Positions 17,274 to 62,362 of a stretch of 64,000 nt of DNA are shown in pieces. The first letter of the stretch is position 1, and every line of letters starts with the position of its first letter. The stretch covers positions 62,001-126,000 of the forward strand of contig JABVCE010000013.1 in NCBI GenBank assembly GCA_014905635.1. Reading direction: 5' to 3'. The notes under the pieces are model-generated. The model searched no databases. It was not told the origin of the DNA and was given only the letters and a program-made list of their open reading frames with translations. The stretch is from Scenedesmus sp. PABB004. Its lineage: Eukaryota. Made by a program: the position numbers and the translations under genes.

Positions 17274-19459
17274 TCACGCGCCCGCCAGCTGCATCAGGCC
17301 TGCGGGGGCACGGGCGGGCGGGGCCGAGGGCGTGAGCGCGGGGCGGCTGCGGCGGCGCCCGGAGCGCGGCCAAGCGGCGCCGCGCAGGCACACGCCGCAC
17401 CTGCCACGGCCTCGAGCTCCAGCGCCTGCGTCTCCCCCGCGTCGTGCTGCGCCGTGCGGTGCGGTTCCTGCTGGTCCGCACGATGCAAGCTCGCCTGGTG
17501 CGCCTGGTGCGCCTGGTGCGTCTGAACCTGCTGCGCCGCGAGCAGCTGCTGCACCTGCACCACGAGTGCGCCTGCAGGTGCCGGTGCCGGCCACAGCTGC
17601 AGCACGCCCGGCGCAGCCTGCCGCCGCTGCTGCTGCGCCGCCTGCACCTGCAGCTGCGCCAGCGCACGCGCCTGCGCCTGCGCCAGCACCGCGGCCTGCA
17701 CCTGCGGCGACAGCTGCTGCTGCGCCGCCGGCTGGGGGCCTGGCGGCTGGGGTCGCTCGGCCGCCTGCTGCTGCGCTGGCCGCGCCGCCTGCGGCGGCAT
17801 GAAGAGAGGCAGCAGCTCTGGCGTGGCTGCCGCCAGCTGCTGCTGCGGCTGCTGCGGCTGCTGCTGCGGCAGTGGCGGGTGCGGCGGCTGCGTCCCCTCC
17901 TGCTTCAGCGCGGGCGGCGGACCCGCCGCCTGCTGCGGCGTGGCCGGCGCCGCGGCGCCGGCCATGCGCTGCAGCCAGGACTGCGGGCCCTCGGCGCGCG
18001 GCCGCCGCGCCGGCAGCTGGTGCAGTGCCGGCGGCGGCGCCGGCGGCTGCCAGGGGCCGGTCTCGGCCGCCTCAACCGCGTCGGCCGCCACCGCCGCCGC
18101 GACGGCCGACGCCAGCGCCGCGTCAGCGGTCGCCTGCTGCTGCCGCCGGCGCTGCACCTGCTGGCGGCGGCGCGCCAGCTGCTGCTGCCAGATGCGCCGC
18201 GCGAGCGCGCCCGACAGCGCCTGGGCGGCCTGGTGCTGCTGCTTGCTCCTTGCCTTGTGCTGCAGCGCCTGCTGCTGCAGCGCCTGCTGCTGCAGCGCGT
18301 GCTGCTGCAGCGCCTGCTGCTGCAGCGCGTGCTGCTGCAGCGCCTGCTGCTGCAGCGCGTGCTGCTGCAGCGCGTGCTGCTGCAGCGCGTGCTGCTGCAG
18401 GACCGCCTGCTGCTGCAGCAGGAGCGCCATGCCGCCGCCGCCCGCCAGCCACGGCCCCGCCGGCACCGCCCAAAACTGCTGCTGCGCCTGCTGCTGCTGC
18501 TGCTGCTGCTGCGATGGCGGCGCGGCGTGCGATGGCGTAAGCGGCTCCTCGCTCTGGTTGAACGCGGCCTGCACGGCCAGCCGCGCCTGCGCGCCGCCTG
18601 GGCTGCCCGGCTCGCCCGGCTGGGGCGGCGCCGCCGCGCCGCCGGCAGGCGCGCCCGCCGCAGGCCCGCCCGGCTGCCCCGGCGCAAACGGCAGCGCGGC
18701 GTGCTGCAGGCCCAGCCGGGGCGTCGCCGTGCTGCTGCTGCTGCTGTCGCTGCCGGCCTCGCGCGGCGGCGGGGCGGCCGCCGGGCCCGGCGGCGCCGCG
18801 GCCGGGCGCGCCAGCGAGTCGGGCGGGCTGTGCAGCCCGTCGCCCGCCCGCCGGCGCTTGGCGTCCTGCCCTGCCGCTGCGGGTGCGGGCTCCGCGCCGG
18901 GCGCGGCCACGCCCGTGCCCGGCCGCAGCGTGCCCCCGCCCGTCGGCGGGACGCACGCGGCGCCGGCGGGGCCCAGCCCCTCCGCCCGCCCTGGCGACGC
19001 CTGCATCTGAGCGAGGGCGCGCTTCGTCAGCAGGCCCTGCAGGAGCGGCAGCTGCGCGTGCTGCGCCGCCGCTGCCGCCGGCGCCGGCGCCTGCTGCGCC
19101 AGCGTGCCGAGCCGGCCCGCCTGCCGGCTGAGCAGGCCCTGCAGCTGAGCGATGGCCGCCGCCTGCTGCTGGTGCAGCACCACGGTCGGCGACATTGAGC
19201 GCTGTGCCGCGGCCTGCTGCCCGGGGAGCGGCGGCGGTTGCGGCGACGCGTGCGCGGCGCTTGACGCCAGCGGCGACGCGGCGCCGCCACCGCTGCCGGC
19301 GAGCGGGGCGGCCATCGCGGCCGGCGCCTCCTCCAGCCAGGGCAGGCCCGTGCCGCGGTCGCGCGTCGCTGCCTCGGCGTGCGCGGCGCCGGCGCGCGCC
19401 GCCGCGAGCGGGGCAGCAGGCAGTGCTGCCTCCCGCACTGCTCCGGCGTCGGTGGTCAT
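17274..19459 (-). CDS. Q/A/P-rich low-complexity protein, possibly a nuclear regulator; intron 17300-17400
   Basis: Long ORF with coding-like CAG/GCG/CTG usage and an NLS-like AKRRR. A GT-AG intron gives the C-terminus LELEAVAGLMQLAGA*. No globular domain recognised. Confidence 0.65.
18258..18400 (-). repeat. 15-nt coding tandem repeat, (ALQQH/Q) about 9-10 copies
   Basis: Unit ctgcagcgc[c/g]tgctg repeated on the + strand. Confidence 0.9.
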
Positions 19460-44780: not shown

Positions 44781-45700
44781 TCACAGGGCGCGCAGCATCC
44801 TGCGGCCGCCGGGGGCAACAATTGTGCCCACGAACGGAATTCCGCTGACGACGGTGCCGCGGGGGCCGTTGAGCACGTCCACGCCGGCGATCGTCTGCGG
44901 CGGCGGGTGGGCACGGGCGCGCGCGCGCGCGGGGCGAGCGGGTGAGCGGGCGAGCGCGGCCTCGGCGGCGGCCCCCCCGCGCCGCGCGCGCGTCGCAGCA
45001 CACAGCACCTGCACGCTCGTCACGGGGCCGGCGGGGGTCTTGACGACGTCGACGTTGGCGCCGGGCGACGTCACGCTCGTCGCGAGCGGCGTCGACGCGA
45101 CGGTCGTGGTCGGTGCGGAGACAAACACCGCCTTCTCAGCGCCGGCGGCCTTGACGCCCGTGGGCTTGGCCGCGACCACGGTCTTGGTGGTGGTGGTCAC
45201 CTTGGTCGCCGGCGCCGTCGCGCCGGTCTGCGGCGGCGGGCGCGGCGGCGGGCGCGGAGTGAGGCGGGCGGAAGCAGCGCGCGCCGAGTGTCCGCGGTGC
45301 CGCCACGCGGCCGGCGCGGTGCGCGGGCCGGGGCGAGCCTGGCAGCCTGGCGCCGGATCGGCGGGCGCGGGCCTCGCGGGCCGCCCCCGCGGCCCCTGGC
45401 GGGCGGTGACGACACTCTTGCGGCAGCTGCCCGCACCGCGCGCCGCACGGCGCGCGTCGAATGCGGCGGCGCCCACACATGCTGCGGGCTGCTGTACTCT
45501 GACCATGCGCGCCCCGGTGGGCCGCGCCGGGCGCTGCAGGCGCCGCAGGGCGGGGCAGCGCCCTGCCCACCGCCCGCCGCCGGCCACGCGCCCGCTGCCG
45601 GCCCGCCGGGCGCGGCGCCGCGTCCAGGGCGCTCGCACACACGCACCTGCACGGCGGCGGCCACCAGGGCCGCCAGCACGAAGAGGGCGAGCTTGGCCAT
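44781..45700 (-). CDS. Small secreted Thr/Val/Ala/Pro-rich protein, 128 aa; exons 45700-45647, 45227-45009, 44894-44781
   Basis: Signal peptide MAKLALFVLAALVAAAVQTGA; two phase-0 GT-AG introns; ends ...GTIVAPGGRRMLRAL*. Confidence 0.82.
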
Positions 45701-46333
45701 CGCGGTGTGTGTCCGGCTTGGGCTGGTGGGGCGGCTGCGTGCAACGGCGATCAGAGAGGGAGAGGCGGCAGGGATCAGAGGTGCTCGTGCGATGCGGGGG
45801 CGGCGGACAAGTGGCGCGGGGAGCTGGAGCGGGAGCGGCAGCAGACAGGGCACGTGAATCAGTGAGAGCAGCTGGCCCGACATGCCGCCATGTCGGGCAG
45901 CACCGCCGAGCCACGCGGAGGACCGTGAGCCCGGCCCGCGCCGCAGCGCGCGCGTCACCCGCGGAGCAGCACGATTGCTGCCGCGCACCTGCGGGCTGGG
46001 CGGTGCACCTGGGCTTGCGGGGCGCTGCCACGGGGTCGGCAGTAGTCAGCGTCTGGAGCTGCTGGATCTGGTGGCGTGTGAGCCGGCGGCCATTTGATGC
46101 GCCGGCGGCGAGTTTGGGCCTGGCGCACCGGAGCCAAAGAGCCCAAGTTGGGTTGCAATCCCCAGCCAAACTCATCAAAACCCCAGCAGACCAATCCACC
46201 GCCACCGCCGGTGCATCGTGGCCCGGCCCAACCTGCTCCGAGCCGCGCTCCGCGCGGCGCGCGGCGCGCCGGCACACAACTGCCGCAACCGCCGCTCATC
46301 AATCGCCATCACGCAGCCCCCTGCCGCCCGACT

Positions 46334-47080
46334 TCACGCGCCGCCGCCGTCACCGCCGCTCCGGCTGGCGGCGAGCTGCAGCGCCGCGGCGGCGGCGGCC
46401 GCCGCGCCCGCCGCCGCGCGCGCGTCTGACGCCCGCGGCGCCGCCGCCAGCGCCGCGCCGCCCTTGGCACGCGCCGCGCCGGCCACGCCGACCACCGCCA
46501 CGACGCCGACGCCGTCGCCTTCGCCGGCGTTGGCGCCGCCGGCGCCGTCCCCGCGGGCTGCCGCCGCCGCGGCCGCGGCCCTGGCGCGGCGCGCCGCGCG
46601 GCGCGTGCGCAGCCACGCGGCCGCCGCGAGCGCGGCGCGCAGCAGCTCGGGTGCGAGCATGACGCAGACGTCGACAAAGTAGCAGGCGACGAGCACCGAC
46701 AGCAGCGCCGCGCTGCCGGGGCGCGCGCGGAGCAGCAGCGCGGCGACCAGGATGACCAGCTCCGCGCCGTACGCGGCGACGTCGGCGGCGAGCAGCAGGC
46801 CCGACGCGAGCGGCCGCGCCGCGAGCAGGTAGGCCAGGAAGGCGGCGTGCAGCGCGAGCAGCGCGCCGAGCTGCGCGTCGCTCGCGGCGGCAAAGTGGAA
46901 GGCGCCGAAGAAGAGCGCCGTGCCGAGGCGCTGCGCCGCGCTGGCGACGTAAAAGGCCAGCACCGCCGGCCGCAGCCGCGCGAGCGCGCCCGGCCGCTCG
47001 TCGCCGACCAGGTCGTCCACCAGGTGGCCAAAGCGATCCAGCCACGCCGCGTCGCCCGCGGCGGCGGCCGCGCCGGCGCC

Positions 47081-47111
<31 letters not shown>

Positions 47112-50100
47112 CCGCCTGACATCCACGTCTGCTGCCGCGCGAGGCCGGCGCCGGGCGCGGCGGCGCCGCCGTCGGACGGGCCCTGCAGCGCGACGCCGCT
47201 GGCCGACGCGAGCTCGCCCCAGCCGCCGGCGGCGGTGCCGCGCTCCGCGCGCCACTCCCGCTCCTCGTCGCTGTCGCTGGAGCCGCTGTGCGCAACCGGC
47301 GGGCCGCGCACGTCGCGCGGCAGCTCGCGCGCCTCGTCCAGGGGCTGCGGGCCGCCTGCGGCGGCGGGCGGCACGCGCGGGCGGGGGCGAGGGCGGCAGC
47401 GGCGCATTGGGCGGGCGGCAGCGCCGGGCAGCGGCGCCGGCGGCGTGCTGCCGGCCGACTGCTGGGGGGCGAGGGTCGTGCGACCGACCTCGGCTGTGCC
47501 GCGGCGGCCCCGCGCCGTCGGGGCGGCGCTCGGACGACGCCGGCCGGCTGCGGGCTCCGCCGCCGGCGCCGTCGTCGGCCGCCGCCTCGCCGGGCAGGGA
47601 CTCTGCCCGCTGCAGGGCGGGCGCACGCGGGGAGCGAGCAGCACCTGTTGCGCTACGGGGGCTCCGGCTGAGGCGTTGAACTGCGGCCAGCGCGTCGTCG
47701 CGCTCGTCGCCGGAGGTTGGCAGGAAGCTGATGGCCGCCGCGCGCAGCGCGCCCGAGCGGGCGCCGAGCACGGGGGCGGGGCCCGCCGCGCCGCCGCCGC
47801 CGCCGGAGTCCGCGCCGCGCCAGGGCCGGGGCGCCTGCTCCGCGCGCCCGCTGCGCCGCCGGGGCGCGCACTCGCGCTCGCCGTCCGAGTCCGAGCCGCC
47901 GCCGCTGCCGGGCGGATCCTCGACCGCCTCGCTCAGCTCATCTTCGCCCGTGTGGCGGTCGCGCAGCACCAGCGTCGGGTTGTCCGCCGGCTCGCCCAGC
48001 AGCGCGAGCGTCGCCTGCGCGCGCTGCTGCCCCGCGGGCGGCGGTGCGGCGCCGCCGCCGCCCGTCGCGGGGCGCTCGTACGTGCGCAGTATGCTCGACC
48101 GGCTGCGCGGCGGCGGGCGCCGCGCGCCGGCGCGCTCCGCGCGCCACTCCCACAGGACATAGGCCCAGAAGGCAAACACGGGCAGCGGCAGCAGCGCGAC
48201 GACCGCGACGCCCGCGCCCGCGTCGGCGGCCGCGGCCGCGCTCGCGCCGCCGGCGGCCGCGAGCTTGGCCGCGCCGTAGACGACGGGGACCATGAGCAGC
48301 GTGTGGGCGAGCAGCTGGGGCTTGGGCGAGCGCAGCAGCCTGGGAGCAGCGTGCAGGCGCGAGAGAGGCGCGCGCAGGGCCGGGCGGGCGCGGGTCAAGG
48401 AGGGGTCAGAGCAGGCGGGGGGGGGGGGGGAGCGGGGAGGCGGCAAGCGCCGCCCCCGGGCGCCGCCGGCGCTCACGTGGGCAGGCTGTCGGGGCTGAGC
48501 CGCAGCAGGCGCCACGCGCCCAGCGCGGCGCCCTGGAGCAGCGTGGCCGCCGCGACCGCGACCACCAGCGTGAGCACGCTCATGCGCAGCTCGTGCAGCG
48601 AGGCGGGCTTGGGCTGGCGCACGTCGCCCGCCAGCACCACCGGCGCGCCGGCGCCGGCGCTGCCGTTGCCGTGCGGCGCGGCGCCGCTGCCGTCGCCGCC
48701 GAGCACCAGCACGCCCGTGCCGGCGCTGCCGCTGCCGTTGCTGGCCGCGTAGCCGCCGCCGGCCGCGTTGGCGGCCAGCCAGCTGTCCACGGAGCGCGCG
48801 TCGGGCGCGTCGCCCAGCAGGGCGCGGCCGTGCCGGTGGCGCGCGCGCGCGGCGTCGCCCCCGGCCGCCGCCATCAGGTGGCGGCGTGCGGCGGGGGAGG
48901 ACGGCAGCTGCTGCTTGATGTAGGCGGTCGCGTTGCTCGTCAGCTGCACCACGCGCTCGGCGGGCTTGACCAGGTTTGACCAGCTGCCGCGACGTGGGCG
49001 GCGCGTGAGCGGTCAGGCGCGGCGCCGCGCGCGCGTGCTCCCCGCGCCGCGGCCCCGCCGCCGGCGGCCGTGCAGCACGGCCGCGCCGCGCTCACTCGAG
49101 GCCGGAGCAGAGCCGCACGTACTCGGCCGGCAGCCAGGGCACCGCGAGGCTGACCGACATCGCGAGGAACTGCGTGTGCCCCACACTGCGCAGCAGGCTG
49201 GTCGTGCCGCCCGCGGTGCCGCCGCTCGCGACCGACGCCGCCGCGCCGAGCGCGGAGGCGGCCGCCGAGACCGCGGTCGCAGACGACCCCATGTCAGCGG
49301 CGCGCTGCAGCAGGCCGCTCCCCGGCACAGACACCTGGCCCGCACGGCGGCGGGCAGGCGGGCGGGCGCCAGCAGGGGTCGGCGCCGGCCGAGCGCGCGC
49401 GCTGCGCGCCGCGCTGCGCATCGCGCCGCGCGCCCGGCCGCACCGCCAGCCGCTTGTCCTGCACGCCGCGGCTGCCCGCCAGGTCCTGGTACGCGGCGCC
49501 CAGCACCTCCACGGCCGCGGTGGTGCCCGGCCACGAGCGCAGCCACATTACGTACGCCGTCGCCGCGCCCGTCGCCGCGCCGTCGGGCGTGGCCGCGAGC
49601 GAGTCGGGCGCGGCCGTCATGTTGAGCAGGGCGGCGTTGGTGAGCCAGATGCGGCTGCTGCTGAACGCGGCGAGCTGTTGCGCGGAGCCGCCCGCGTCGA
49701 GCGCGCCCGCGTCCGGCGCGGCGGCGCTCGCGTTGGCGCCGCCCGCTGTCGTCGTCGTTGTCTCGACCTCGTCCGCCACCCAGTGCACCGGCTCTGAGAA
49801 GGTCAGCAGCAGCTGGAAGGCCGGCGCGTCCACGGTCGGCCGCAGCGTGACGGCCATGCTCAGCAGCACCGGCGGCAGCGAGTCCAGCACCACCTGCGGC
49901 GGGCAGAGGTGGGCGCGCGCGCACGCGCGCGCGTGGGGCGGCGGGGCGGCGGGGGCGGCGGGGGCGGCGGGGCCGCCGGTCGCGGGCGTGGGGCGCACCT
50001 CGGTGACGACCGGCTGCAGCGCGACCTGCGCCGCGCACCACGTGGCGTTGGGCACCGCCGGCAGCAGCGACACCGACCAGCGCCCCTCGCCCGGGAGCGT

Positions 50101-53100
50101 GGCCGCGAGCTCGCACATGCCGCCGGCAACCGCAAGGCAGGGCAGGCCGGGCAGGAGCACGACCGAGCCGTCCCCGGCGCCGGACGCGGTGGCGTCGTTT
50201 GACGCGCCGGCGCCGCCCGCGGCAGCGCCGCTGCCGCCGGGCGCAAACATCGGCAGGCTCAGCAGGCGCAGGCTGCACGCGTTGCCCGCGCCGCCGCCGA
50301 GCGTGGGCCCCTCAGGGCAGTAGAGTTTGCGCGACTCGGGCGACGGAAAGACGACGAGGACGGGGACGACGGCGGCCGCCGCGCCGCGCGGCGCGTAGAG
50401 CACGGGCGCCAGCTCGCTCGCCGGCGCCTCGCACACGCCCAGCAGCGGCGCGCGCACGCGGCAGCACGCGGCGGCGCTCGTGTTGGCCTCCGCCGCCGCG
50501 CCGGGGTCGAGCTCGTAGCCGGGCGCGCAGGGGAAGGCGGCGTGCGGGGCGTCGGCGTAAAAGGCGCAGGTCGGCACGAACACGCAGCACGCGGCCAGTG
50601 ACGGGCTGGTGGCGTTGGCCGCTGATGGCGCGGGCGCGTAGCCCGGCGGGCAGGCAAACGCGGTGCCGTTGGGCGCGGCGAAGCCGCAGGTGGGCTCAAA
50701 GGCGCAGCGCTGCGCGGCGGCGTCCCAGGCGTAGTGAGGCACGCAGCCGCACGCGTGGCCCGTCGCGGGCGCGGGCGCGTCGACGCAGGCGCTGGTCGCG
50801 TGGCTGACGTTGGCGCACGGCGCCGCCGCGCAGCCGTCGATGTCTGGCGGCGGGCCGGCGGCGCGGCGGGCCGGCGCGCGTGAGAGGGGCGGTGGCGGGC
50901 GGCGAGCCGCGGCACGCGCGCGAGGGGGGTGGACGCCCGTCGGCGCCGCACCTGCGTCGCACGTCTGCCCCTCCCAGCCGGCGGTGCAGCTGCACACGCC
51001 CCCGGCGCAGGCGCTGGCATGGCCGTAGCAGTAGTTGGGTGTGAGGGTGCAGTCGTCTGCGGCGCGCGATCCAGCGGCGCGGTGCGGCTGGCGGCGCGTG
51101 CGCGCCCCGGCAGCGCGGCGCGGCGCGGCCTGGCGGACGGTTGGCGCGACCGGGCGGTGGGCAAGGCCGCACCTTTGCACGCCGCGGTGCCGCTGTCCCA
51201 CGAGTGCCCAGCGGCGCAGGCACAGGCGTAGCCAACGCTCGGCGCGACGGCGTCGGCGCAGCTGCCGTTGATGGCGTGCGCCGCGCCGTCGCAGGGCGCG
51301 CTGGTGCAGCCGTCCACGTCTGCCGGGGCGGCGCGCCGCGCGCAGCGCGGCGGGTCAGCCTGCTCGTCCGGTGAGAGAGGCGCGCTCGCCGTGCTGCGCC
51401 GCGCCCCTGCTGGCCAGCACGCACCGTACTGGCAGCGCTCGCCGTGCCACGCCGCCGCGCAGCCGCACACGCCCGCGGCGCAGGTGCCATTGCCGTGGTC
51501 GCCGTTGCACCAGTCCGGCACGCCCACGCAGTCGTCTGTGCGGCGGTCGGCGGCGCGGCGCGCGCGGTGGGGCGGGGTGAGGCCGCCGCACGGCAGCGGA
51601 CTGGCTGCCAAGGATGCGGTGGGGCGGGCGCCGCCGCACCCGTGCACTCGAGGGCGCTCTGGTTCCAGGAGAAGCCCTGAGCGCAGACGCACGCGTGGTC
51701 TGTGAACGGCGGCACACGGTCGAGACAGACGCCCGGCAGCGCGTTGCTGGTGGCGTTGCACGGGCTGGCTGCGCAGGCATCAAAGTCTGCGCGCCGCGGC
51801 GGGCGGTCAGCAACAACGCGGCGGGCAGCGCCGCCACGCGCGGCGAGTCCTGCGCCGCAGGCTCCCTGTAATGCAGCCGCGCGCACCGACGCAGCATGCC
51901 GCGTTGCTCAGGCTGGTGACGTTTGCGCGGGCGGCGTCCAGCACAAACCCAGGGTCGCACTGGAAGGCCGTCCCGTTCTCCAACGCCGCGCTGCAGTGTG
52001 GGATGTACTGCGGGCGAGGCAGAGGGGGGTGAGCCCCCGCGCGCGCGAGGCAAAGACGAGCGCGCAGTCACTGCTGGTGTGATCCCAGCACACAAGGCCC
52101 CTCGACTCCTCACCGTGCAGCACGCCGCCTGGTCTGGGCTGGGGCTGGCGCCCTGAGGATTGTACTGATACCAGGTCGGGCACTGCAGGGCGCTGCCATC
52201 GCTGTTGTACTGCGCGCACGTGCGGCCGACAGTGATGGCGGCCGCGAGCTGCACGTTGTTGGCCGCGTTGCTGTCCGGCTGGCCCGCGGCAGCCACGCTG
52301 GTGTTGGCGCTGAACGAGCCGCTGCTGGTGCCCTTGACCACCACCGCGTAGCTTGCGCTGCCGCCAGCAGCCAGCGACGCCACCGGCCCGCAGGTCAAGA
52401 CGTGCCCGCTGATGCTGCAGCCTGCGGCGGCGGCAGTGGACAAGCGGCCAGCGCGCATGTGAGATGTCAGATTGGCGAGCTGCGCCCCTGCACCCACACA
52501 GCGCCCCCGCGCGCCCCACCTGCTGGCGCTGGCGCCACAAACGCCAGCCCCGCTGCGGGCAGCGTCTGTGTGGTGGTCACGTTGGCTGCCTCCCATGTGC
52601 CCTGGTTGACAACGCTGATGTTGAAGGCGGCCGTGTCTGCAATCAGGATCTGCCCATCGGCCGGCACCAAGCTCTGGTTCAGCGCCAGGTCAGGGAACAG
52701 CTCGACCTGCGCGCGCATGGTGACGGGCAGACGGAGCAGGACGCAGCGGGTGAGCGCAGCTGCGGCGTGCGCGGTGCGCCGCGGCCAGGGCCCCGCCCGC
52801 GCGGGCCCGGCACTCACGCAGCACGTCGCCTGACTTGGGCTGGTGTTGTTCGCGGCCGCAGCTACGAACAGCCACCAGGCGTCGCTGGCCGTGCAGTCGT
52901 ACGCGCTGCCATCGCTGTTGTACTGCGCGCACGTGCGGCCGACCGTCACGGCGGTGTGCAGGGGACCGTTTGTGGTCAGGTTGCTGTCGCGGTCAACGTC
53001 CAGCGTTGTGTTGACGGCAAAGCTGCCTGCCGCGCTGGTGGACACAGCAAACGTGAAGCTCGTGCTTCCGCCGGCAGCAGCCAGCGTGGCGATGGGCCCG

Positions 53101-56100
53101 CAGGTTAGGTCCTGCCCGCTGATGCTGCAGCCTGCAGCAGCGACGGCAGCACACTGTTAGAGGGCCAAGCCAGCGCTGCTCTGCTGGCAATGCGCCCGCC
53201 GCCAGCCCTCCCGCCGCACACCTGCTGGTGCAGGCGCCACAAACGCCAGGCTGGCCGGCAGCGAGTGCGTCAGGTTGGTGTTGACAGCCTCCCAGTCCCC
53301 GTGGTTGACGATGCTGGTGGTGAAGCTCACGGTGTCTGAGATCAGGACCTCGCCGCTGGCTGGAGCGGTGGTCTGGCTGATCACGAGGTCAGGGAACAGC
53401 TCGTACTGCGCGGCGCGCGCCAGCAGCAGGCAGGGCGGCGGGCAAACCGTGAGCGCTGCTCCTGCTGCCGCTGCTGCTGCTGCTGCCGCTGCTGCCGCTG
53501 CTGCCGCTGCTGCTGCTGCTGCCGCTGCTGCCGCTGCTGCCGCTGCTGCTGCTGCTGCTGCCGCAGCTGCTACCACTGCCGCCAGCACGCAGCAGCACTC
53601 ACGCAGCACGTTGGGTTGTCGGGGCTGGTGTTGCCAGCAGCGGTGGTGTTGAACGCCCACATGTTGTTGCAGTTGAACTGGCTGCCGTCGCTGTTGCACT
53701 GCGCGCACGTGCGGCCGACAGTGATGGCGGCCGCGAGCTGCACGTTGTTGGCCGCGTTGCTGTCCGGCTGGCCCGCGGCAGCCACGCTGGTGTTGGCGCT
53801 GAACGAGCCGCTGCTGGTGCCCTTGACCACCACCGCGTAGCTTGCGCTGCCGCCAGCAGCCAGCGACGCCACCGGCCCGCAGGTCAAGACGTGCCCGCTG
53901 ATGCTGCAGCCTGCGGCGGCGGCAGTGGACAAGCGGCCAGCGCGCATGTGAGATGTCAGATTGGCGAGCTGCGCGCCTGCACCCACACAGCGCCCCCGCG
54001 CGCCCCACCTGCTGGCGCTGGCGCCACAAACGCCAGCCCCGCTGCGGGCAGCGTCTGTGTGGTGGTCACGTTGGCTGCCTCCCATGTGCCCTGGTTGACA
54101 ACGCTGATGTTGAAGGCGGCCGTGTCTGCAATCAGGATCTGCCCATCGGCCGGCACCAAGCTCTGGTTCAGCGCCAGGTCAGGGAACAGCTCGACCTGCG
54201 CGCGCATGGTGACGGGCAGACGGAGCAGGACGCAGCGGGTGAGCGCAGCTGCGGCGTGCGCGGTGCGCCGCGGCCAGGGCCCCGCCCGCGCGGGCCCGGC
54301 ACTCACGCAGCACGTCGCCTGACTTGGGCTGGTGTTGTTCGCGGCCGCAGCTACGAACAGCCACCAGGCGTCGCTGGCCGTGCAGTCGTACGCGCTGCCA
54401 TCGCTGTTGTACTGCGCGCACGTGCGGCCGACCGTCACGGCGGTGTGCAGGGGACCGTTTGTGGTCAGGTTGCTGTCGCGGTCAACGTCCAGCGTTGTGT
54501 TGACGGCAAAGCTGCCCGCCGCGCTGGTGGACACAGCAAACGTGAAGCTCGTGCTTCCGCCGGCAGCAGCCAGCGTGGCGATGGGCCCGCAGGTTAGGTC
54601 CTGCCCGCTGATGCTGCAGCCTGCAGCGGCGACGGCAGCACACTGTTAGAGGGCCAAGCCAGCGCTGCTCTGCTGGCAATGCGCCCGCCGCCAGCCCTCC
54701 CGCCGCACACCTGCTGGTGCAGGCGCCACAAACGCCAGGCTGGCCGGCAGCGAGTGCGTCAGGTTGGTGTTGACAGCCTCCCAGTCCCCGTGGTTGACGA
54801 TGCTGGTGGTGAAGCTCACGGTGTCTGAGATCAGGACCTCGCCGCTGGCTGGAGCGGTGGTCTGGCTGATCACGAGGTCAGGGAACAGCTCGTACTGCGC
54901 GGCGCGCGCCAGCAGCAGGCAGGGCGGCGGGCAAACCGTGAGCGCTGCTCCTGCTGCCGCTGCTGCTGCTGCTGCCGCTGCTGCCGCTGCTGCCGCTGCT
55001 GCTGCTGCTGCCGCTGCTGCCGCTGCTGCCGCTGCTGCTGCTGCTGCTGCCGCAGCTGCTACCACTGCCGCCAGCACGCAGCAGCACTCACGCAGCACGT
55101 TGGGTTGTCGGGGCTGGTGTTGCCAGCAGCGGTGGTGTTGAACGCCCACATGTTGTTGCAGTTGAACTGGCTGCCGTCGCTGTTGCACTGCGCGCACGTG
55201 CGGCCGACAGTGATGGCGGCCGCGAGCTGCACGTTGTTGGCCGCGTTGCTGTCCGGCTGGCCCGCGGCAGCCACGCTGGTGTTGGCGCTGAACGAGCCGC
55301 TGCTGGTGCCCTTGACCACCACCGCGTAGCTTGCGCTGCCGCCAGCAGCCAGCGACGCCACCGGCCCGCAGGTCAAGACCCGCCCGCTGATGCTGCAGCC
55401 TGCGGCGGCGGCAGTGGACAAGCGGCCAGCGCGCATGTGAGATGTCAGATTGGCGAGCTGCGCGCCTGCACCCACACAGCGCCCCCGCGCGCCCCACCTG
55501 CTGGCGCTGGCGCCACAAACGCCAGCCCCGCTGCGGGCAGCGTCTGTGTGGTGGTCACGTTGGCTGCCTCCCATGTGCCCTGGTTGACAACGCTGATGTT
55601 GAAGGCGGCCGTGTCTGCAATCAGGATCTGCCCATCGGCCGGCACCAAGCTCTGGTTCAGCGCCAGGTCAGGGAACAGCTCGACCTGCGCGCGCATGGTG
55701 ACGGGCAGACGGAGCAGGACGCAGCGGGTGAGCGCAGCTGCGGCGTGCGCGGTGCGCCGCGGCCAGGGCCCCGCCCGCGCGGGCCCGGCACTCACGCAGC
55801 ACGTCGCCTGACTTGGGCTGGTGTTGTTCGCGGCCGCAGCTACGAACAGCCACCAGGCGTCGCTGGCCGTGCAGTCGTACGCGCTGCCGTCGCTGTTGTA
55901 CTGCGCGCACGTGCGGCCGACCGTGATGGCGGCCACGAGCTGCACGTTGTTGGCCACGTTGCTGTCGGGGGCGCCCAGCAGTGCCACAGAGGTGTTGACA
56001 GTCTTGTTGCCGGGCGACGTGGCCCGCAGCGTCACGAGCACAGTCGTGTTTGCGTTGACTGCCAGCGGCGCTGACAGCCCGCACGTCACCGTCTGACCCG

Positions 56101-59100
56101 TCGCGGCGCAGCCTGCGCATCAGCACGAGACGGCGAGTGTTAGGCGACAAGCGGTGCGGCCACGGAGCTGCGGCACGCCACACAGGCGCACCTGCTGGCG
56201 ATGAGCTTGCCAGCTCCAGGCCGGCCGGCAGGTCCAGGGTGATGGTGATGTTCTCGGCCGCCCACTCGCCCTGGTTGGCCAGCGTGGCGCTGATGTTGAG
56301 AGTGGAGGCGATGAGCAGCTGCCCGCTGGCCGGCGCCACGCTCTGGCTCAGCACCACGTCGGGGAGCAGCCGGCGCTGCGGGCGGCGGGGGTGGCGGGCG
56401 GGCAGGGCGAGTCGGCGCTCCAGCCATGCCCTGGGCGCGGGCACCTACCGCCGAGGCCCGGCTGGCCGCCGCGCCCCCGCGCCCGCTCACGCAGCAGGTG
56501 TCGCGCGGCAGCGCGCCCGCGAGCGCGCCCGCCGCGCTGCCGTTTGTGGCGTAGCCCGGGTTGAGCGCGGCGCAGTCGTACGCGGTGCCGTTGGTCCAGT
56601 ACGACCCGCAGGTCGGCTGGTAGCAGCAGGTGTCGTGGTCGACCGTCGTCGAGGTCGACTGGTTGGCGTTGGCCAGGTAGCCAGCGACGCAGTCAAACGG
56701 CGCGACCGAGATGATCGCGGTCGCGTTGAACGTCGGCACCGCGCCGCACGTCGGCGTGTAGCAGCACTCCCCCGCGACGCCGGTGCTACAGTTGCGGGGC
56801 AGGCCCGCGTGCGTGGAGTTGATGGCGAGCGAGCAGAGCTCGCGCGTCGACGCGGCGCTCAGCGGCACGCAGCACGCGGCGTCGCTCGGCGGCGCGGACG
56901 CGAGCGCCATGGCGTCGGGGCCCTCGCCTGCGACGGTGCAGGCCCAGGGGCTGCCGCCTGGGTCAGCCACGCCGCAGGTCGGCACAAACGCGCAGCAGGT
57001 CGCATTGTCGAGGGTCGTCGCGGCGGGGTTGATCGCCGTCCACACGCCCACCGAGGGGCAGGCAAAGGGCGCGCCCGTCGCGTTGGCGGCGCCGCAGGTC
57101 GGCACAAACGCGACGCAGCAGGCGGCGTCGCTCGGCGCCGTCGCGTTGACTGCCGCCGCGCTCAGCACGCTGCCGGGGGCGCACGCGTACGCGCCGCCGC
57201 CCGGCGCGGCGAGGCCGCAGGTCGGCGTGAAGCGGCAGCAGCGGGCAAAGTCGGGCGCGGTCGTGGCGGCCTTGGCGGGGTCGTTGTCCCAGCTCGCGCC
57301 CGCGGCGGCGCAGGGGAACGCGCCGCCGCCGGGCATGAAGGCGCCGCAGGTGAGCGGCGTCGTCGCTGGAGTATAGAACCAGGGCGGCGCGCTGCGCGCG
57401 GGCCACCAGTCGCACGCCGCGCACGTGGTCGCGGGGTCGCAGCTCGCCGCCCAGTCGGACACGGAGCCCGCGCCGCTATAGGACGACCAGTTGATGGCGC
57501 TGCAGCTCGCGTCTGCGCGGCGGCGGCGGGCACGGCGGCGGGCGCGGGGGGTTCGTCGCGTCGGGCGCCCGCGGCCGCGCGCCGCGCGCGCCGGCCCGCA
57601 GCGCGGCCTGTGGCGCGCGCACTGTTCCAGGTGAGGCGGGACATGTCTGGCTTGATGTTCGTGCCCTTCAGCTTGAGGTAGGAGAGCTTGGGGAAGGCCG
57701 TCTGGTTGTACCACGCGGCCGGCAGGTCGCCGTAGAGGTCGGTGTGGCCCGCGAGGTTGCTGCAGGCCGCGGCGGCGCGGCGGCGGGTGAGGTCAGGCGC
57801 GCGAGCAGGCCAGCGGCGCTGAGCGCGCCCCCTTCCCAAGAGCAGGGCTGCTGCGCCCCTCCCGCGCCGCGCCGGGGCTCACACGCTGATGAGCGTCTGT
57901 GCCCACGCCGCGGGCGAGCCGTCGGCCTTGGCGCCCCACGTCGCGGGGATGGTGCCAGAAAACATGCGGCGCACGCCGCGCACGACCGTCGCGCCGAGGC
58001 TGCCCGTGCGCGCCCACGCGTCGAGCGCGGCGCCGACGCTCGGCACGACCGTCATGTTGTCCCACGCGTCGTCGGGGCAGAAGCAGGCGCCGTTGGTCAC
58101 CGTGCCGCCGGGGCCGTCGGCGACGCAAAACTCGGGCGCGCTCTGCTGCCACGCGTACTCGGGCGCGTGCCGCCCCGCGGAGCAGTGCGCGAGCCTGCGC
58201 GCGGGGCGGGCCCGCGTCGGCAGGCCGCCCGTGGCGCCGCCCGCGGCGGCAGGCCGGGCCGGGCCGGGCCCGCCGGGCGCACGGCCCTGCGCTCCCCCGC
58301 GGCCCTGCGTGCCGCCCACCCGAGGTGCCGCAGGTTTGGGAAGATGTCGGGCAGGCCGGCCAGCGCGGCGAGGGAGCCGCCGAGCATGTTGAAATTCAGG
58401 TTGCTGCGCGGCACACGCGGCGCGAGGCCGTGGGGGCAAGGCCGTGGGCGGGGCCCGCCTTTCAGCACGCAGCGTGCGCGCGCCGAGGCCCGGCGGCAGC
58501 GGCGTTAGCGCGAATCAGCACGCAAGCCGCGCCGCAGCAGCTGCTCACAGGTACCAGACGTGCTGCCCCGCCTGGTCGGGGCCGGCAAAGGCGCTGAAGT
58601 CGAGCTGCTCCGAGTAGAGTGTGAGGTTGCGCCAGTCGCTGCAGCATGGGGATGGGCGGGGCGGGCGCGGCGGTCGGGCGGCGGCCGGGCGGAGGCGGCC
58701 GTGCGCGGGCGGGCGCGCAGGCCCGGGCCGCGCCCAGCGCCGCGCCGCGCTGAGCGTGCGCCCTGCCGGCCTCACATCGCGGCGATGCGGTTGGCGGCCG
58801 ACGGGTCGCGCATGCGGCGCGGGTCGGACGCGCAGGTGGTCGCGTTGACGCAGCCCACGACGTCCCCGCCGCCGTCGCGGACGAGGCCGTCGGTCGCGTT
58901 GACGCTCCACCCGCGCCGGGCGGGGTCGCTCGGCAGGCTGCAGTCGGCGACGCACTCCACAAAGGGCCAGCCGCAGGGGTCGTGCCGCGGGCTGGCCATC
59001 GCGCTCCAGAGGTCGTCCGCGGCGGCGTACTGCCCACCGACGCGCGCGGCGCACTTGTCGGCGTCTGCGCCCGCGCGCGGCGTGAGGCGGCCCTCCGCGC

Positions 59101-62100
59101 CCGCGCGGTCGCAGGCGTTGGCGTAGGCGTACAGCCAGGCGCTGCCGGACCAGCAGGGCGTCACGCGGGCGCCGCTGCCCGGGTCGGACGCGAGGAACGC
59201 GTCCGAGCACGCGTCCACCGGGAAGCGCTGCCCCCCGACCGTGACGCCCACGTTGTATTCGCAGTTGTCGGCCTTGGCGCCGTCCCACGCGCCCAGCGCG
59301 CCGCCGCAGCCGACGTTGCCGCCGTCGCCGCGGGTCGAGAGGCCCTGCCGCGCGCCCGGCGGCACGAAGCGCGTCCTGCGGCGGCGGCGGCGGGGGCGGC
59401 GGCGGCGGCGGCGAGGGTCGGTCAACGGCTGCGCGGCCATGCCGCAGGCAGGGTGGCAGGGGCGACCGCCGCGCGCTGGTGGCGCGCACGCAGCGCGTCG
59501 ACCCGCGCCTGTGCGCGCGCGCGTCGACCGCGTTGGTGGCAAAGCTGTCCAGCCAGAACTTCTGCAGCACGAGGTAGGAGGGCCAGGCTGCGCGCAGCGT
59601 GCGGCGGCGCCGTGAGCGGCCAAGCTGCGCCCGGCCGCGCCCGCGCCGCGCCCCGCCGCCGCGCCGCGCACCCGCCGACTCCTGCGTGACCACGAAGACC
59701 GAGCCGTATCCGAGCTCGTCGAGCACGGCAGCCTTGGAGCCGGTGGTGAAGGTGTTGAACAGCGCGAGGCGCGACCGCGTCGCGTCGACGCGCACGCTGT
59801 ACAGCGCGAGGGCGCAGCCCGCGGCGCTGAACATCGCGCACGCCGGCGGCTTGAGGTAGCCCGCGGCCGTGGCCTGCCAGTCGGTCCAGCCCTCGTCGCA
59901 GGGGCGCAGGCTGACGAGGTACGCGTAGGACCGCGGCCCCGGCGCCGCCGCGTTGGCGGCAAAGCCCACGCACAGGCCGCGGTGCGTGATGCGCGCGCTC
60001 GTTGCGAGGCTGCCCTGCACCTGGAAGCACTGCCGCTCGCTCGGCACCGCCTCGCACGGCGTCAGCTCCACGCCCAGCGCGTGGCTGCCGAGCTCGGCCA
60101 GGCTCCAGCCCGTGCCGCTCGGCGGCGTGAGGCTCGCGGGCGCGGTCCAGCAGCGGTTGGTGCCCTGGAAGCGGTGGTTGGAGTTGAGCCGGAAGCGCGT
60201 GCACCCTGCGCGGCGGGGGCGACAGGGGAGGCGGCGCGGCGCGTCGGCTGCCGCACTGCCCCGCGCCGCCGCGCCGCCGCGCCCGCGCACGATGCCACCG
60301 AGCCTGCCGCGCACCGGCGCGCGCGCGCGCGCACGCACACACCCGCCGCTGAGCCCTTGCCCGCGGGCAGCTCAAAGACCTCCTGGAAGAGGAATAGGCG
60401 GTCCAGCGCCTCCTGGTCAGCGTTGAGCGCGGCCTGGCGCGGCAGGATGCCCTCGTACAGGCTGGCGGCCACGTTGGTCGCGTCGTCGTCGCTCGCGGCG
60501 CGCCACGCCTCAAACGGCCACATTGGCGGCACGAACCAGGCCTTGCGCGCGTCCCACATGTCGGCCGCGCCGGGCGCGGCCGCGGCGGCCTCGGCCGCCA
60601 GCCAGCGCGTCACGCCGCCCTCCAGGCAGCCGCCGTACTGGGGCAGGCCGTGCGCCTGCCGCGCCGCGGCGGTGTGGTAGGCCTCGTCATGTGCCAGGTA
60701 CTGCACCACCGGCGCGGCGCAGCGCCCGCCGTGGCGCCGGTCAAACGTGGCCCAGTTGCAGGGCACGCGCGGCAGCAGCCCCGTCGGCGCCGGCACGCGC
60801 GGGTCGGCCGCGTGGAGCGAGTCGTCGGCGTACGCCGCGGGCACCTTGAACGACAACGTCATGTTGGCCAGGCGATTGACCTGGAGCAGCTGCGACCCGC
60901 GGCGACAGGCCAGCACGGGCAGGCCGTGCGGCAGCGCGCGCGCGCAGGTCGCGTTGGCCGCCGCGGCGTCGGGCGGCGCGGGCGTCATGCCCAGCGTGCA
61001 CACGTCGCCGTCGTCAAAGGGCCCGATGCAGTGGTCGCCCTGGTCAACGGGCTCGTACGCGCCGGGCTGAAACACGTCGGTGTCGCCGGCATCGGAAATC
61101 ATGAACCCGTTGGCCGACACAGTCGTCCCGTTGGGCAGGGCCGTGGACACAAAAGCGAGGTTGTGGTACACGCCTTCGATGTCAGTCACGGAGGTAAAAG
61201 GGTAGTCATACCAGGAATGGAGCGGCCACAGCGGCGTCGGCAGACTGCCAGTGTTGTCGAGGGGGCGCGGGGCCGGAGGGGTGCCGGTGCCGAGCACCGT
61301 CAGCACAACCGCCTGCCCGCTCGCGCCGTACGCGATGTCGGTGGGCGCGGTGTTGGGGTAGACTGCGGTGCCGCCGAGGGTGTCGGGCTGCAGCTCAAAC
61401 GGCTCCCACCGCAGCGTCACCGCGCAGCGCCGCGCGCTCCAGACCCAGCGCAGCTCCCGGCCCGACGCGACGAGGTCGCGCAGGAACAGGTTGCAGGTGT
61501 GGTCGCTCGTGGGCGCCGCGGGGGCCTCCTCCACCCACTCCCAGCCCAGCTCGCCGGGCGGCGTGAGCAGCGAGGTCGCGGTCGGCGGCGCGGGGACGGC
61601 GTCGTTGGGGATGAGCAGCGTGCCGTTGGCGCCGTCGCAGAAGCGTGAGAATGACGCATAGCAGATGGTCGATCCAAATGTGTGTGCGCTGGTGGACAGG
61701 GAAGCGTAGCCAGCAATGTTTGGGTCAAACATGTCGTAGTCCACGAGCACCGCGTTGGGGTCGCTCCCCCGCGCCGCCTGCGGCGCGCCCTGGGGCAGCA
61801 CGACGTTGACCTGCGCGCGCGGGAGGCCGGTCGACACGTAGAAGGGGACCGCGTGGGGCTGCGCGCCGTCGGCCCAGTCGCGGCGCAGGTAGAGCGACAC
61901 CAGCGCGTCGTCGGGCGGGTGCCGGCCCAGCCACCACTGCTTCTGCTGCGGCGGCGCCGCCCAGTCGCCATCGGCCCAGGTGTACGCCAGCGCCGCCCAG
62001 TTGGCGCCGGGGTCGTACGACGCGGCGGGGCCCGCGGCGCCGTTCTTGGGCCCCGCCGGCATCAGGGTGTCAACATACGCGGCGGCCGCGCCTGCGGGGC

Positions 62101-62362
62101 GTGCGGGCGCGCGTGGGCGGCGGGGCGCGCGCGCCGCGGCGCAGCGGGGCGGCTGCGGCCAGCGCGCAGGCAGCATGCCGACGGCGCGGCCGAGCTCACC
62201 GGGCAGCAGCTGGAGCGCCGGCAGCCAGCTGCGTGCGGCGGCGGCGGCACCGCCGCGTGCCCGCCCGCCCGCAGGACTCGGGCGGGGCGCCAGCAGCACC
62301 GCCAGCAGCGCCGCCAGCAGCAGCACGAGGCGCGCCGGCGGGCGAGGGGGCCAGCTGCCCAT
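46334..62362 (-). CDS. Giant modular cell-surface membrane protein: signal peptide, unknown domain, ricin-B-like, LRR cap + LRRs, 4-Cys repeats, 6 DUF11-like domains, EGF-like, Ig-like, FLC/TRP-like multi-TM domain; about 30 exons
   Basis: Co-oriented chain of exons with coding-like composition and many NxS/T sequons. DPCGWPFVEC cap; FSGTIPATWG and LYGDLPAAW LRRs; PDL...VVNQG...DSNAANN; CxCxxGWxGxxC EGFs; LTFSEPV; GHTQFLAMSVSLAVPWLPAEY. A single-gene model is inferred. Confidence 0.7.
52192..55924. repeat. Near-perfect intragenic tandem repeat, 1489-bp period, about 2.5 copies (exons and introns)
   Basis: Matching ORF ends at 52467/53956/55445 and 53157/54646 (offset 1489); only a few SNPs seen between copies. 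Confidence 0.97.
53455..53581. repeat. (GCT/GCC)n intronic triplet repeat, duplicated at 54944-55070
   Basis: Read directly; apparently the same pattern in both copies. Confidence 0.9.

Follow-up and report, generated by a model that had tools for sequence, protein, structure and literature searches.

A 1489-bp tandem array of intron-bearing DUF11 modules, probably a frame-keeping expansion, in a putative surface-protein gene of Scenedesmus sp. PABB004

The 64,000-nucleotide (nt) window analysed here (positions 62001-126000 of contig C6 in G000, the source genome assembly of the green alga Scenedesmus sp. PABB004) contains a large gene for a putative surface protein, in whose stalk a block of DUF11 modules is tandemly repeated. 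The array occupies positions 52192-55924 of the window, to which coordinates below refer unless a contig or locus is named, and its 3733 bp amount to 2.51 copies of a 1489-bp unit. It is very probably real, its exact copy number being that of the assembly. We favour as its probable origin a frame-keeping intragenic expansion of the DUF11 stalk, the latest step of a long-running, homology-driven turnover in the stalk of a surface protein. An ungapped comparison at an offset of 1489 (52192-54435 against 53681-55924) gave 8 mismatches in 2244 positions (52198, 52208, 52486, 53028, 53139, 53891, 53892 and 54400) and no indel, the intron with the GCT/GCC triplet run included. The original prediction of about 2.5 copies, nearly identical through introns and an unstable triplet repeat, was thus confirmed. 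In a control over the rest of the window, no 500-nt stretch compared without gaps at offsets of 1400-1600 exceeded 47% identity. A search of G000 with the DNA of the unit found no other long copy; only the triplet run matched elsewhere, and module C weakly.

The host gene was built by hand from splice-site candidates and has 33 exons encoding 4098 residues. It contains no internal stop, all its acceptors are AG, and its donors are 31 GT and one GC. The DUF11 block corresponds to residues 1591-2583. As had been predicted, one unit consists of four exons (993 nt, 331 residues in frame, intron phases 0/1/0/1) carrying two DUF11-like domains, each with a 4-Cys repeat, as seen in the gene model and the Pfam matches. 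Every DUF11 domain of the host protein is directly followed by its own 4-Cys repeat (TC-x-C-x-CC); a phase-1 intron splits each DUF11 and a phase-0 intron closes each module. Along the gene the order is C-a-A-b-B-a-A-b-B-a-A-c, where capitals denote DUF11 types, mutually 40-56% alike, and lower-case letters denote types of 4-Cys repeat. The gene and the parts of the block are as follows.

46334-62362, reverse strand: host gene, running from 62362 to 46334.
55913-56375, reverse strand: DUF11 type C, encoded by exons 11-12 and present once, outside the array; exon 11 matches Pfam DUF11 at E 1.6e-4; 51% alike to A and 40% to B.
55796-55912, reverse strand: 4-Cys repeat a, copy 1, with the TC-x-C-x-CC pattern; other copies, with the same pattern, at 54307-54423 and 52818-52934.
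55200-55684, reverse strand: DUF11 type A, copy 1, with Arg at residue 1826; isopeptide columns Q/Q/A.
53711-54195, reverse strand: DUF11 type A, copy 2, with His.
52222-52706, reverse strand: DUF11 type A, copy 3, with His.
55092-55199, reverse strand: Cys repeat b, with a fifth Cys; second copy at 53603-53710.
54895-55091, reverse strand: 197-nt intron with the GCT/GCC triplet run, identical to the copy at 53406-53602.
54424-54894, reverse strand: DUF11 type B, copy 1; Pfam DUF11 E 1.2e-5 on exon 15; isopeptide columns Q/H/V.
52935-53405, reverse strand: DUF11 type B, copy 2.
52117-52221, reverse strand: 4-Cys repeat c, single copy, within which the array ends.

A Tyr-to-Cys change at 53697 and 55186 had been read as a difference between copies. 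This proved wrong: Cys is present in both copies of repeat b, and the change distinguishes the b junctions from the c junction. This fifth Cys, found once per unit, is probably unpaired and could cross-link chains. The 111-nt intron between repeat a and domain A (55685-55795, 54196-54306 and 52707-52817) is in frame and free of stops, and its retention would add 37 residues with the protein frame intact. Skipping of cassettes is likewise compatible with the frame of the gene model; the explanation given below does not need it.

The domains of the window are DUF11 by profile. Five of the seven scanned DUF11-half exons match Pfam DUF11 (PF01345) with E values of 1.2e-5 to 1.7e-3, two of them above the curated cut-off. 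No Pfam DUF11 match came from the second half of type C or of type B. Scored alone against the cut-off of 24.6 bits, the first-half exons of A (25.5) and B (26.0) pass and that of C, as a half domain, scores 22.4. TIGR01451 matches all three DUF11 first halves. P0002, an algal ortholog described below, scores 148 bits over four DUF11 domains. DUF11 has been renamed CLIPPER and is described as forming the stalks of bacterial and archaeal fibrillar adhesins, with a Lys-Asn isopeptide bond, some DUF11 domains being without it (PMC12617251). The isopeptide columns were set by a profile of algal domains aligned to the Protein Data Bank (PDB) entry 9IFR (E 0.0023, a weak match, the best of five); a single-sequence PDB search had missed this entry. 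The aligned Asp is position 44 of the 9IFR chain, counted by us as 749 and given as 748 in PMC12617251. In all six domains of the window the Lys of the first strand (K715 in 9IFR) is replaced by Gln, the catalytic Asp (V-x-D-x-L-P) by Leu, Gln or His, and the acceptor Asn (N806) by Val or Ala. The three residues thus read Q/L/V, Q/Q/A or Q/H/V, and the full triad is found in none of the six domains, nor in the four of P0002. The Asn of a D-x-x-x-x-N-N pattern was considered as the isopeptide acceptor and rejected: the 9IFR alignment points instead to an Asn on the strand before it, and every count is based on the 9IFR column. The window domains belong to DUF11 by profile match; they are no isopeptide domains, and are predicted to be unable to form the CLIPPER bond. 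An intron-free paralogous domain, to which the window domains align, was predicted to fold into eight strands with a predicted local distance difference test score of 96.7. Compared with 9IFR, this model gave Z 14.2 and a root-mean-square deviation of 2.5 over 119 aligned residues; 9IFR was tied with three TTHA1873 entries and lay within 1 Z of integrin Ig domains.

Both ends of the array were correctly predicted to fall in a shared motif encoding GRTCAQYNS, as were the six places of this motif. In its 30-nt form (GRTCAQYNSDG), which we call motif X, it occurs in the window at exactly six places, near 52201, 52914, 53690, 54403, 55179 and 55892, and these are also its only sites in G000 with up to two mismatches allowed (control, 0). 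Joint Genome Institute (JGI) metagenome scans found no locus with the exact motif, and none of 534 pattern matches to the exon 16 protein was confirmed. X joins every domain to its Cys repeat, and both array edges lie inside X, in mid-exon.

52914-52943 (also 53690-53719, 54403-54432 and 55179-55208), reverse strand: internal motif X, covering the last DUF11 β-strand and the first Cys of the repeat.
52190-52230, reverse strand: gene-3′ edge, where motif X is preceded by A-type sequence and followed by B-type letters; its 41 nt recur unchanged at 52903-52943.
55881-55924, reverse strand: gene-5′ edge, where motif X links C to a; position 55889 alone distinguishes it from the B-X-a junctions.

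In the last X, the sequence is A-type upstream of a shared 22-nt run and B-type downstream of it, at four of four diagnostic letters. The array region has four types of domain-to-repeat junction (C-a, A-b, B-a and A-c). An unduplicated three-module ancestor (C-a-A-b-B-c or C-b-B-a-A-c) has only three; thus two junctions are new and must have arisen inside X. The same two new junctions must be postulated if a-A overwrote an older fourth module by conversion.

Independent DNA was found in four freshwater metagenomes from three studies (runs X1-X4), which carry pieces of the window and were compared with it over one unit and its flank; the runs listed included no RNA and none from the source strain. 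Uncovered parts were taken as no evidence either way, and short GC-rich chance joints and loose ends were set aside. X1, X3 and X4 contain near-identical pieces of 154-288 nt at depths of 2-5; one in X1 runs across the C-X-a junction and agrees with the window at all 231 nt. The wild alleles are A at 54628 in all four runs, C at 54517 in X1, G at 55464 in X1 and X3, T at 55381 in X2 and X3, and C at 55380 in X3. Polarised by these alleles, each B copy carries one private change, as does the first A copy, and one change is common to the first and second A copies against the third. Such a pattern of private changes fits what real copies made in sequence would give. The His-to-Arg difference noted near 55380 was misread: at this site (55380-1) a wild Gln codon appears, at low depth, to have become Arg in one copy and His in two, by two separate changes.

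X2 comes from a relative that is 3-5% diverged in the array block. Its contigs have depths of 18.6 for B, 13.3 for A and 7.3 for C, which at face value, with the read length assumed, correspond to about 2.6 copies of B and 1.9 of A, against 2:3 in the window. The B:A depth ratio of 1.4, compared to 0.67 in the window, departs from it with a binomial p ≤0.0015. An X2 contig of depth 7.0 ends in X with three differences, the count expected for the A-X-c junction and for none of the four other contexts tested. If this reading of X2 is right, the block was already repeated, and already ended in A-X-c, before the split from X2, and the lineages differ in copy number. The predicted variation in module number stands for the comparison of six modules with four in P0002, whereas variation between strains is suggested by one metagenome but not shown. 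A loose end of X2 at 55823, at first considered a variant of repeat a, was dropped, as its peptide matches a paralog on contig C18 at 484k.

Three private changes in 2 x 1489 bp amount to 1.0e-3 per site (95% range 0.2-2.9e-3). At the mutation rate of 9.63e-10 given for Chlamydomonas (PMC4617969), the last expansion would be about 10^6 generations old if the private changes are real; the figure is void if they are errors or come from another haplotype. The array block itself looks to have been a repeat for far longer, and the term "very recent", given to the array, is to be qualified accordingly. In a tree the window types C, A and B are separated from the four P0002 modules, with a Shimodaira-Hasegawa-like approximate likelihood ratio test (SH-aLRT) value of 96 (94/93, unstarred, in a small tree). 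The predicted shift in composition was also found: GC is 0.69-0.70 in the array compared to 0.74-0.81 in the flanks, and 4-mer entropy is higher in the array. The six distinct array introns have a GC of 0.70-0.81, against 0.78-0.91 in 20 other introns (p 3e-5). In G000, all nine DUF11 blocks with near-identical internal copies, which include near-duplicates of each other and form about five independent groups, have a GC of 0.67-0.72 and a CpG observed/expected ratio of 0.89-1.09; the three blocks without such copies have 0.75-0.76 and 1.20-1.29. Therefore the shift in composition tracks the repeat state. That the low GC stems from CpG decay is no more than a guess, and the Chlamydomonas study describes a small CpG excess only (PMC4617969).

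The window array has sisters. G000 yields no fewer than 157 DUF11 matches, and the 150 of them that were listed fall on 17 contigs; 20 DUF11 stretches were compared with themselves and eight of them examined in detail. Two arrays are as young as that of the window: at C18:484k, four units of 757 bp with 5 mismatches in 2311 (99.8%), and at C37:149k, three units of 748 bp with 4 mismatches and a 2-nt indel. Both are 99.7-99.8% identical, introns included; in five more stretches the copies are 90-98% alike. Like the window array they consist of DUF11 plus 4-Cys modules, with the same intron positions in C37. Unlike it, they have one domain per unit and are bounded within the later part of the Cys repeat or immediately beyond the donor, with the exception of the left edge of C37, 12 nt past TC. 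Beside its four 757-bp units (L033:3837-6904), the C18:484k stretch carries a second near-duplicate with a period of about 1012-1021.

Several points weigh against the expansion. One rival reading is an assembly artefact: the true locus would have 1.5 units (C-a-A-b-B-a-A-c), a single 1489-bp loop having been entered a second time, and the three private differences would be errors in the consensus. The derived copy alleles (52486 C, 53028 T, 54628 G, His and Arg) are found in none of the four runs, most wild contigs being below depth 5; hence the differences between copies, which had been held to argue for real copies, do so only indirectly. No record spans even one unit, repeat b is without cover in all four runs, and the triplet intron is identical in both copies. 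The assembly is troubled by this family, since the small contigs C34, C35, C52, C53, C57 and C64 repeat other DUF11 genes. In addition, contig depth is no copy number and X2 may mix several strains, the X2 junction contig is identified by a count of three mismatches only, the hand-built gene model is a weak point, and the function proposed below is argued from analogy alone. Nevertheless, we consider the artefact improbable. All differences between copies are substitutions, with no indel in 2244 bp; each of the two B copies departs from the wild allele at a site of its own; depth in X2 indicates more than one copy of B; and the unique flank equals wild contigs with 0 differences in about 510 nt (three records). 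G000 comprises 40 Mb in 80 contigs, the longest seen being 4.85 Mb, and contigs of megabase size suggest reads longer than the array. Even if the last unit were an artefact, the a-A repeat and the X-bounded junctions would stay real.

It is also unlikely that the array is old and of fixed length, homogenised by gene conversion (concerted evolution) while selection holds the length of the stalk. Despite its divergence of 3-5%, X2 seems to have several A and B copies too, collapsed into single contigs; the reduced GC and CpG imply that the block has long been repeated; P0002 has four modules, which makes an ancestor with four plausible; and the C18 arrays show patchy tracts. However, conversion alone would have to erase differences over 2244 bp end to end, the slippage-prone intron included, while the B:A ratio of X2 points to a different copy number and the sister arrays have three, four and about five units. 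The idea that X is a dedicated recombination or breakage signal, so that a programmed or hot-spot accordion switches cassettes on laboratory time scales, is highly improbable. Both edges and both new junction types do lie inside X; two C18 arrays end on the right 4 and 11 nt beyond the equivalent TC codons, and the left edge of the C37 array is 12 nt beyond them. On the other hand, the DNA motif has only its six sites in G000, X is a protein-conserved junction of strand and Cys repeat, A and B share a second, equally long 22-nt run (at 55402), both edges of C18:484k, like the right one of C37, are situated close to CC and the donor, and the private changes imply about 10^6 generations. Motif X is the most alike patch between the modules, conserved in the protein, and no special signal; as a site of breakpoints it holds for this array but not for its sisters.

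According to the expansion that we favour, the DUF11 block would long have been turned over by homology-driven exchange. Copying or conversion of an a-A segment, bounded by X at both ends, would have placed b-B between two direct repeats of 755 bp (C-a-A-b-B-a-A-c). One unit could then be added by in-register unequal crossover at any point of the 755-bp repeat, and X need not be involved. Of the predicted unequal crossover at the motif, the preservation of frame and the making of the junctions inside X are thus retained, but not the need for the last step to occur there. The frame would be kept since homologous codons recombine, rather than by exon shuffling via introns. Each unit would add two Ig-like DUF11 domains and two Cys spacers (331 residues) to the stalk. 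By analogy to yeast flocculins, in which repeat number acts in this manner, the stalk may serve as a passive, disulfide-braced, N-glycosylated spacer that sets the distance of the N-terminal head from the membrane or wall.

The host protein begins with a hydrophobic N-terminus, read as a signal peptide, followed by the N-terminal region, six 4-Cys repeats and the six DUF11 modules. C-terminal to these are four EGF-like exons, two further Cys repeats and a multi-pass membrane region with hydrophobic segments.

56491-57512, reverse strand: exon 10, six diverged 4-Cys repeats found by pattern scan, the stalk upstream of the DUF11 block.
50952-51786, reverse strand: four EGF-like exons, all phase 1-1; weak Pfam EGF matches, E 0.002-0.09, below the cut-off.
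46334-49334, reverse strand: membrane region; four hydrophobic windows above 2.0 by hydropathy, and a long loop.

The Cys repeats of exon 10 gave no Pfam match and no usable Atlas match, and scans of Pfam, NCBIfam and Atlas found no family for exon 2, exon 3 or the 4-Cys repeat. The membrane region, scanned exon by exon, has no Pfam or NCBIfam match; it is weakly like TRP (PF06011) and DGF-1_C clusters (Atlas 0.90-0.92 over part of it, the families being on 18-34% of members), which is a lead only. A 582-residue exon at 60343-62091, without a Pfam or NCBIfam match and with only two homologs found, is likely the binding head of the protein; homolog searches with the N-terminal region gave one match each among about 8000 scored candidates. 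The gene model is supported by these two named green-algal proteins, which align to it. P0002 (named Flechtneria rotunda; its identifier has the form of a transcript open reading frame) is a collinear ortholog with 42% identity over 1971 columns. P0001 (named Hariotina reticulata) is 40% identical over 938 columns and covers exons 2-6, including the GC donor. The peptide joined across the probable GC-AG intron at 59376-59508 agrees with both. Signal peptide, N-terminal region, 4-Cys repeats, DUF11-plus-Cys modules and EGF follow each other in the same order in these proteins. Unlike the window protein, P0002 has four modules, 29-51% alike and without recent duplication, and nine rather than six 4-Cys repeats before the DUF11 block; its record ends in the EGF region. 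Elsewhere in the window, the large gene is closely followed downstream by a small gene of three exons, which encodes a secreted protein rich in Thr and Val (44784-45701, reverse strand), and a 15-bp tandem repeat (18258-18419, 10.6 copies, 92% match) is unrelated to the DUF11 array.

Other members of the family keep the isopeptide residues. At the 9IFR columns the full Lys/Asp/Asn triad is present in 16 of 30 full-span domains of four annotated proteins from the paralogous loci (P0003, 0/11; P0004, 8/9; and the near-duplicates P0005, 5/6, and P0010, 3/4), compared to 1200 of 1552 domains in 131 other matches. P0004 maps exactly to contig C37 in 21 pieces separated by 20 gaps of 80-470 nt, mostly GT..AG by eye; P0003, P0005 and P0010 were assigned to G000 loci by eye. 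Intron-bearing genes with triad domains were seen at L036:600-9101 (C37), L037/L038 (C3), L039 (C11), L041 (C4) and L045 (C52), with triad-bearing stretches at C37:149582-150184 and C3:686606-686950. The C37 gene has a VWA head (Pfam E 4.7e-5, above the cut-off), and other triad domains lie on contigs of 0.8-1.3 Mb. The triad domains fall in one clade with the window and P0002 domains (SH-aLRT 98). A test of a single horizontal origin gave three changes, one of them forced, on a tree of 73 rows and 123 columns whose comparison rows were the top 40 of 248, assumed prokaryotic. Judged by their introns, contigs and place in the tree, the triad-bearing paralogs are true eukaryotic genes and not contamination, and the sister genes may carry eukaryotic intramolecular isopeptide bonds. 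DUF11 is likewise coupled to the 4-Cys repeat in thirteen short matches of other assemblies, so that the module also exists in further organisms, which are probably algae.

Further repeats accompany these paralogs. The small contigs C34, C35, C52, C53, C57 and C64 contain the C4/C11 DUF11 gene again in nearly the same form; C52 has it two times, with a period of about 14.4 kb, and so does C57, with one of about 12.1 kb. These copies are either a whole-gene tandem array or redundant assembly. A tandem array with a period of about 231 bp and at least 17 units, 94-97% identical by BLAST, lies just upstream of a DUF11 gene (L051:1-4175, C21:110000-114200). Cys-rich tandem repeats of 261 bp (87 residues; 97-99% identity) are found C-terminally in members of this paralog family, at L039:7732-8534, L041:1420-1961 and L045:9238-9779.

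Like the CLIPPER adhesins (PMC12617251), the window gene has tandem DUF11 domains in mid-protein, a signal peptide and an anchor. Unlike them, its domains are eukaryotic, a phase-1 intron interrupts each of them, a 4-Cys spacer absent from 131 other long matches comes after each, and all three bond residues of 9IFR are replaced. The 2025 survey judged eukaryotic matches likely false positives or contamination, and describes eukaryotic intramolecular bonds as an open question (PMC12617251). Our literature search, mostly of open literature at the level of listings and abstracts, found among the papers listed none on algal DUF11 or algal intramolecular isopeptide bonds; the supplements of PMC12617251 may list eukaryotic DUF11. 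In yeast FLO1-type genes, in-frame repeats of the central stalk change in number by slippage and recombination, and adhesion is altered (PMC3537727, citing Verstrepen 2005). The window array likewise consists of in-frame tandem repeats in the stalk of a surface protein. Its unit, however, is of 1489 bp with four introns and two domains predicted to fold as Ig-like, whereas FLO1 has Ser/Thr-rich repeats of 45 residues; its anchor is a multi-pass membrane region and not glycosylphosphatidylinositol, and it is known here from sequence alone.

An accordion of this kind is a known way of varying surface proteins; here it would be of the yeast style, working with whole intron-bearing Ig-like domains in a green alga. 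The family-level isopeptide lead is newer than the array itself. The DUF11 triad is kept in some genes and lost in others, all three residues together. It is about an even chance that green algae of this group took up a prokaryotic CLIPPER/DUF11 domain, added a 4-Cys spacer and introns, and built from it a large adhesin-like family with stalks that lengthen and shorten by whole domains, in which some members, such as the VWA-headed C37 gene with its own fresh three-unit accordion, would form Lys-Asn bonds, the window gene having lost the bond and using disulfides instead. If true, the Lys-Asn intramolecular isopeptide bond would be the first in a eukaryote. Three fresh arrays in one genome provide length markers for surveys of strains, and the family may bear on how algae stick, flocculate and form colonies.

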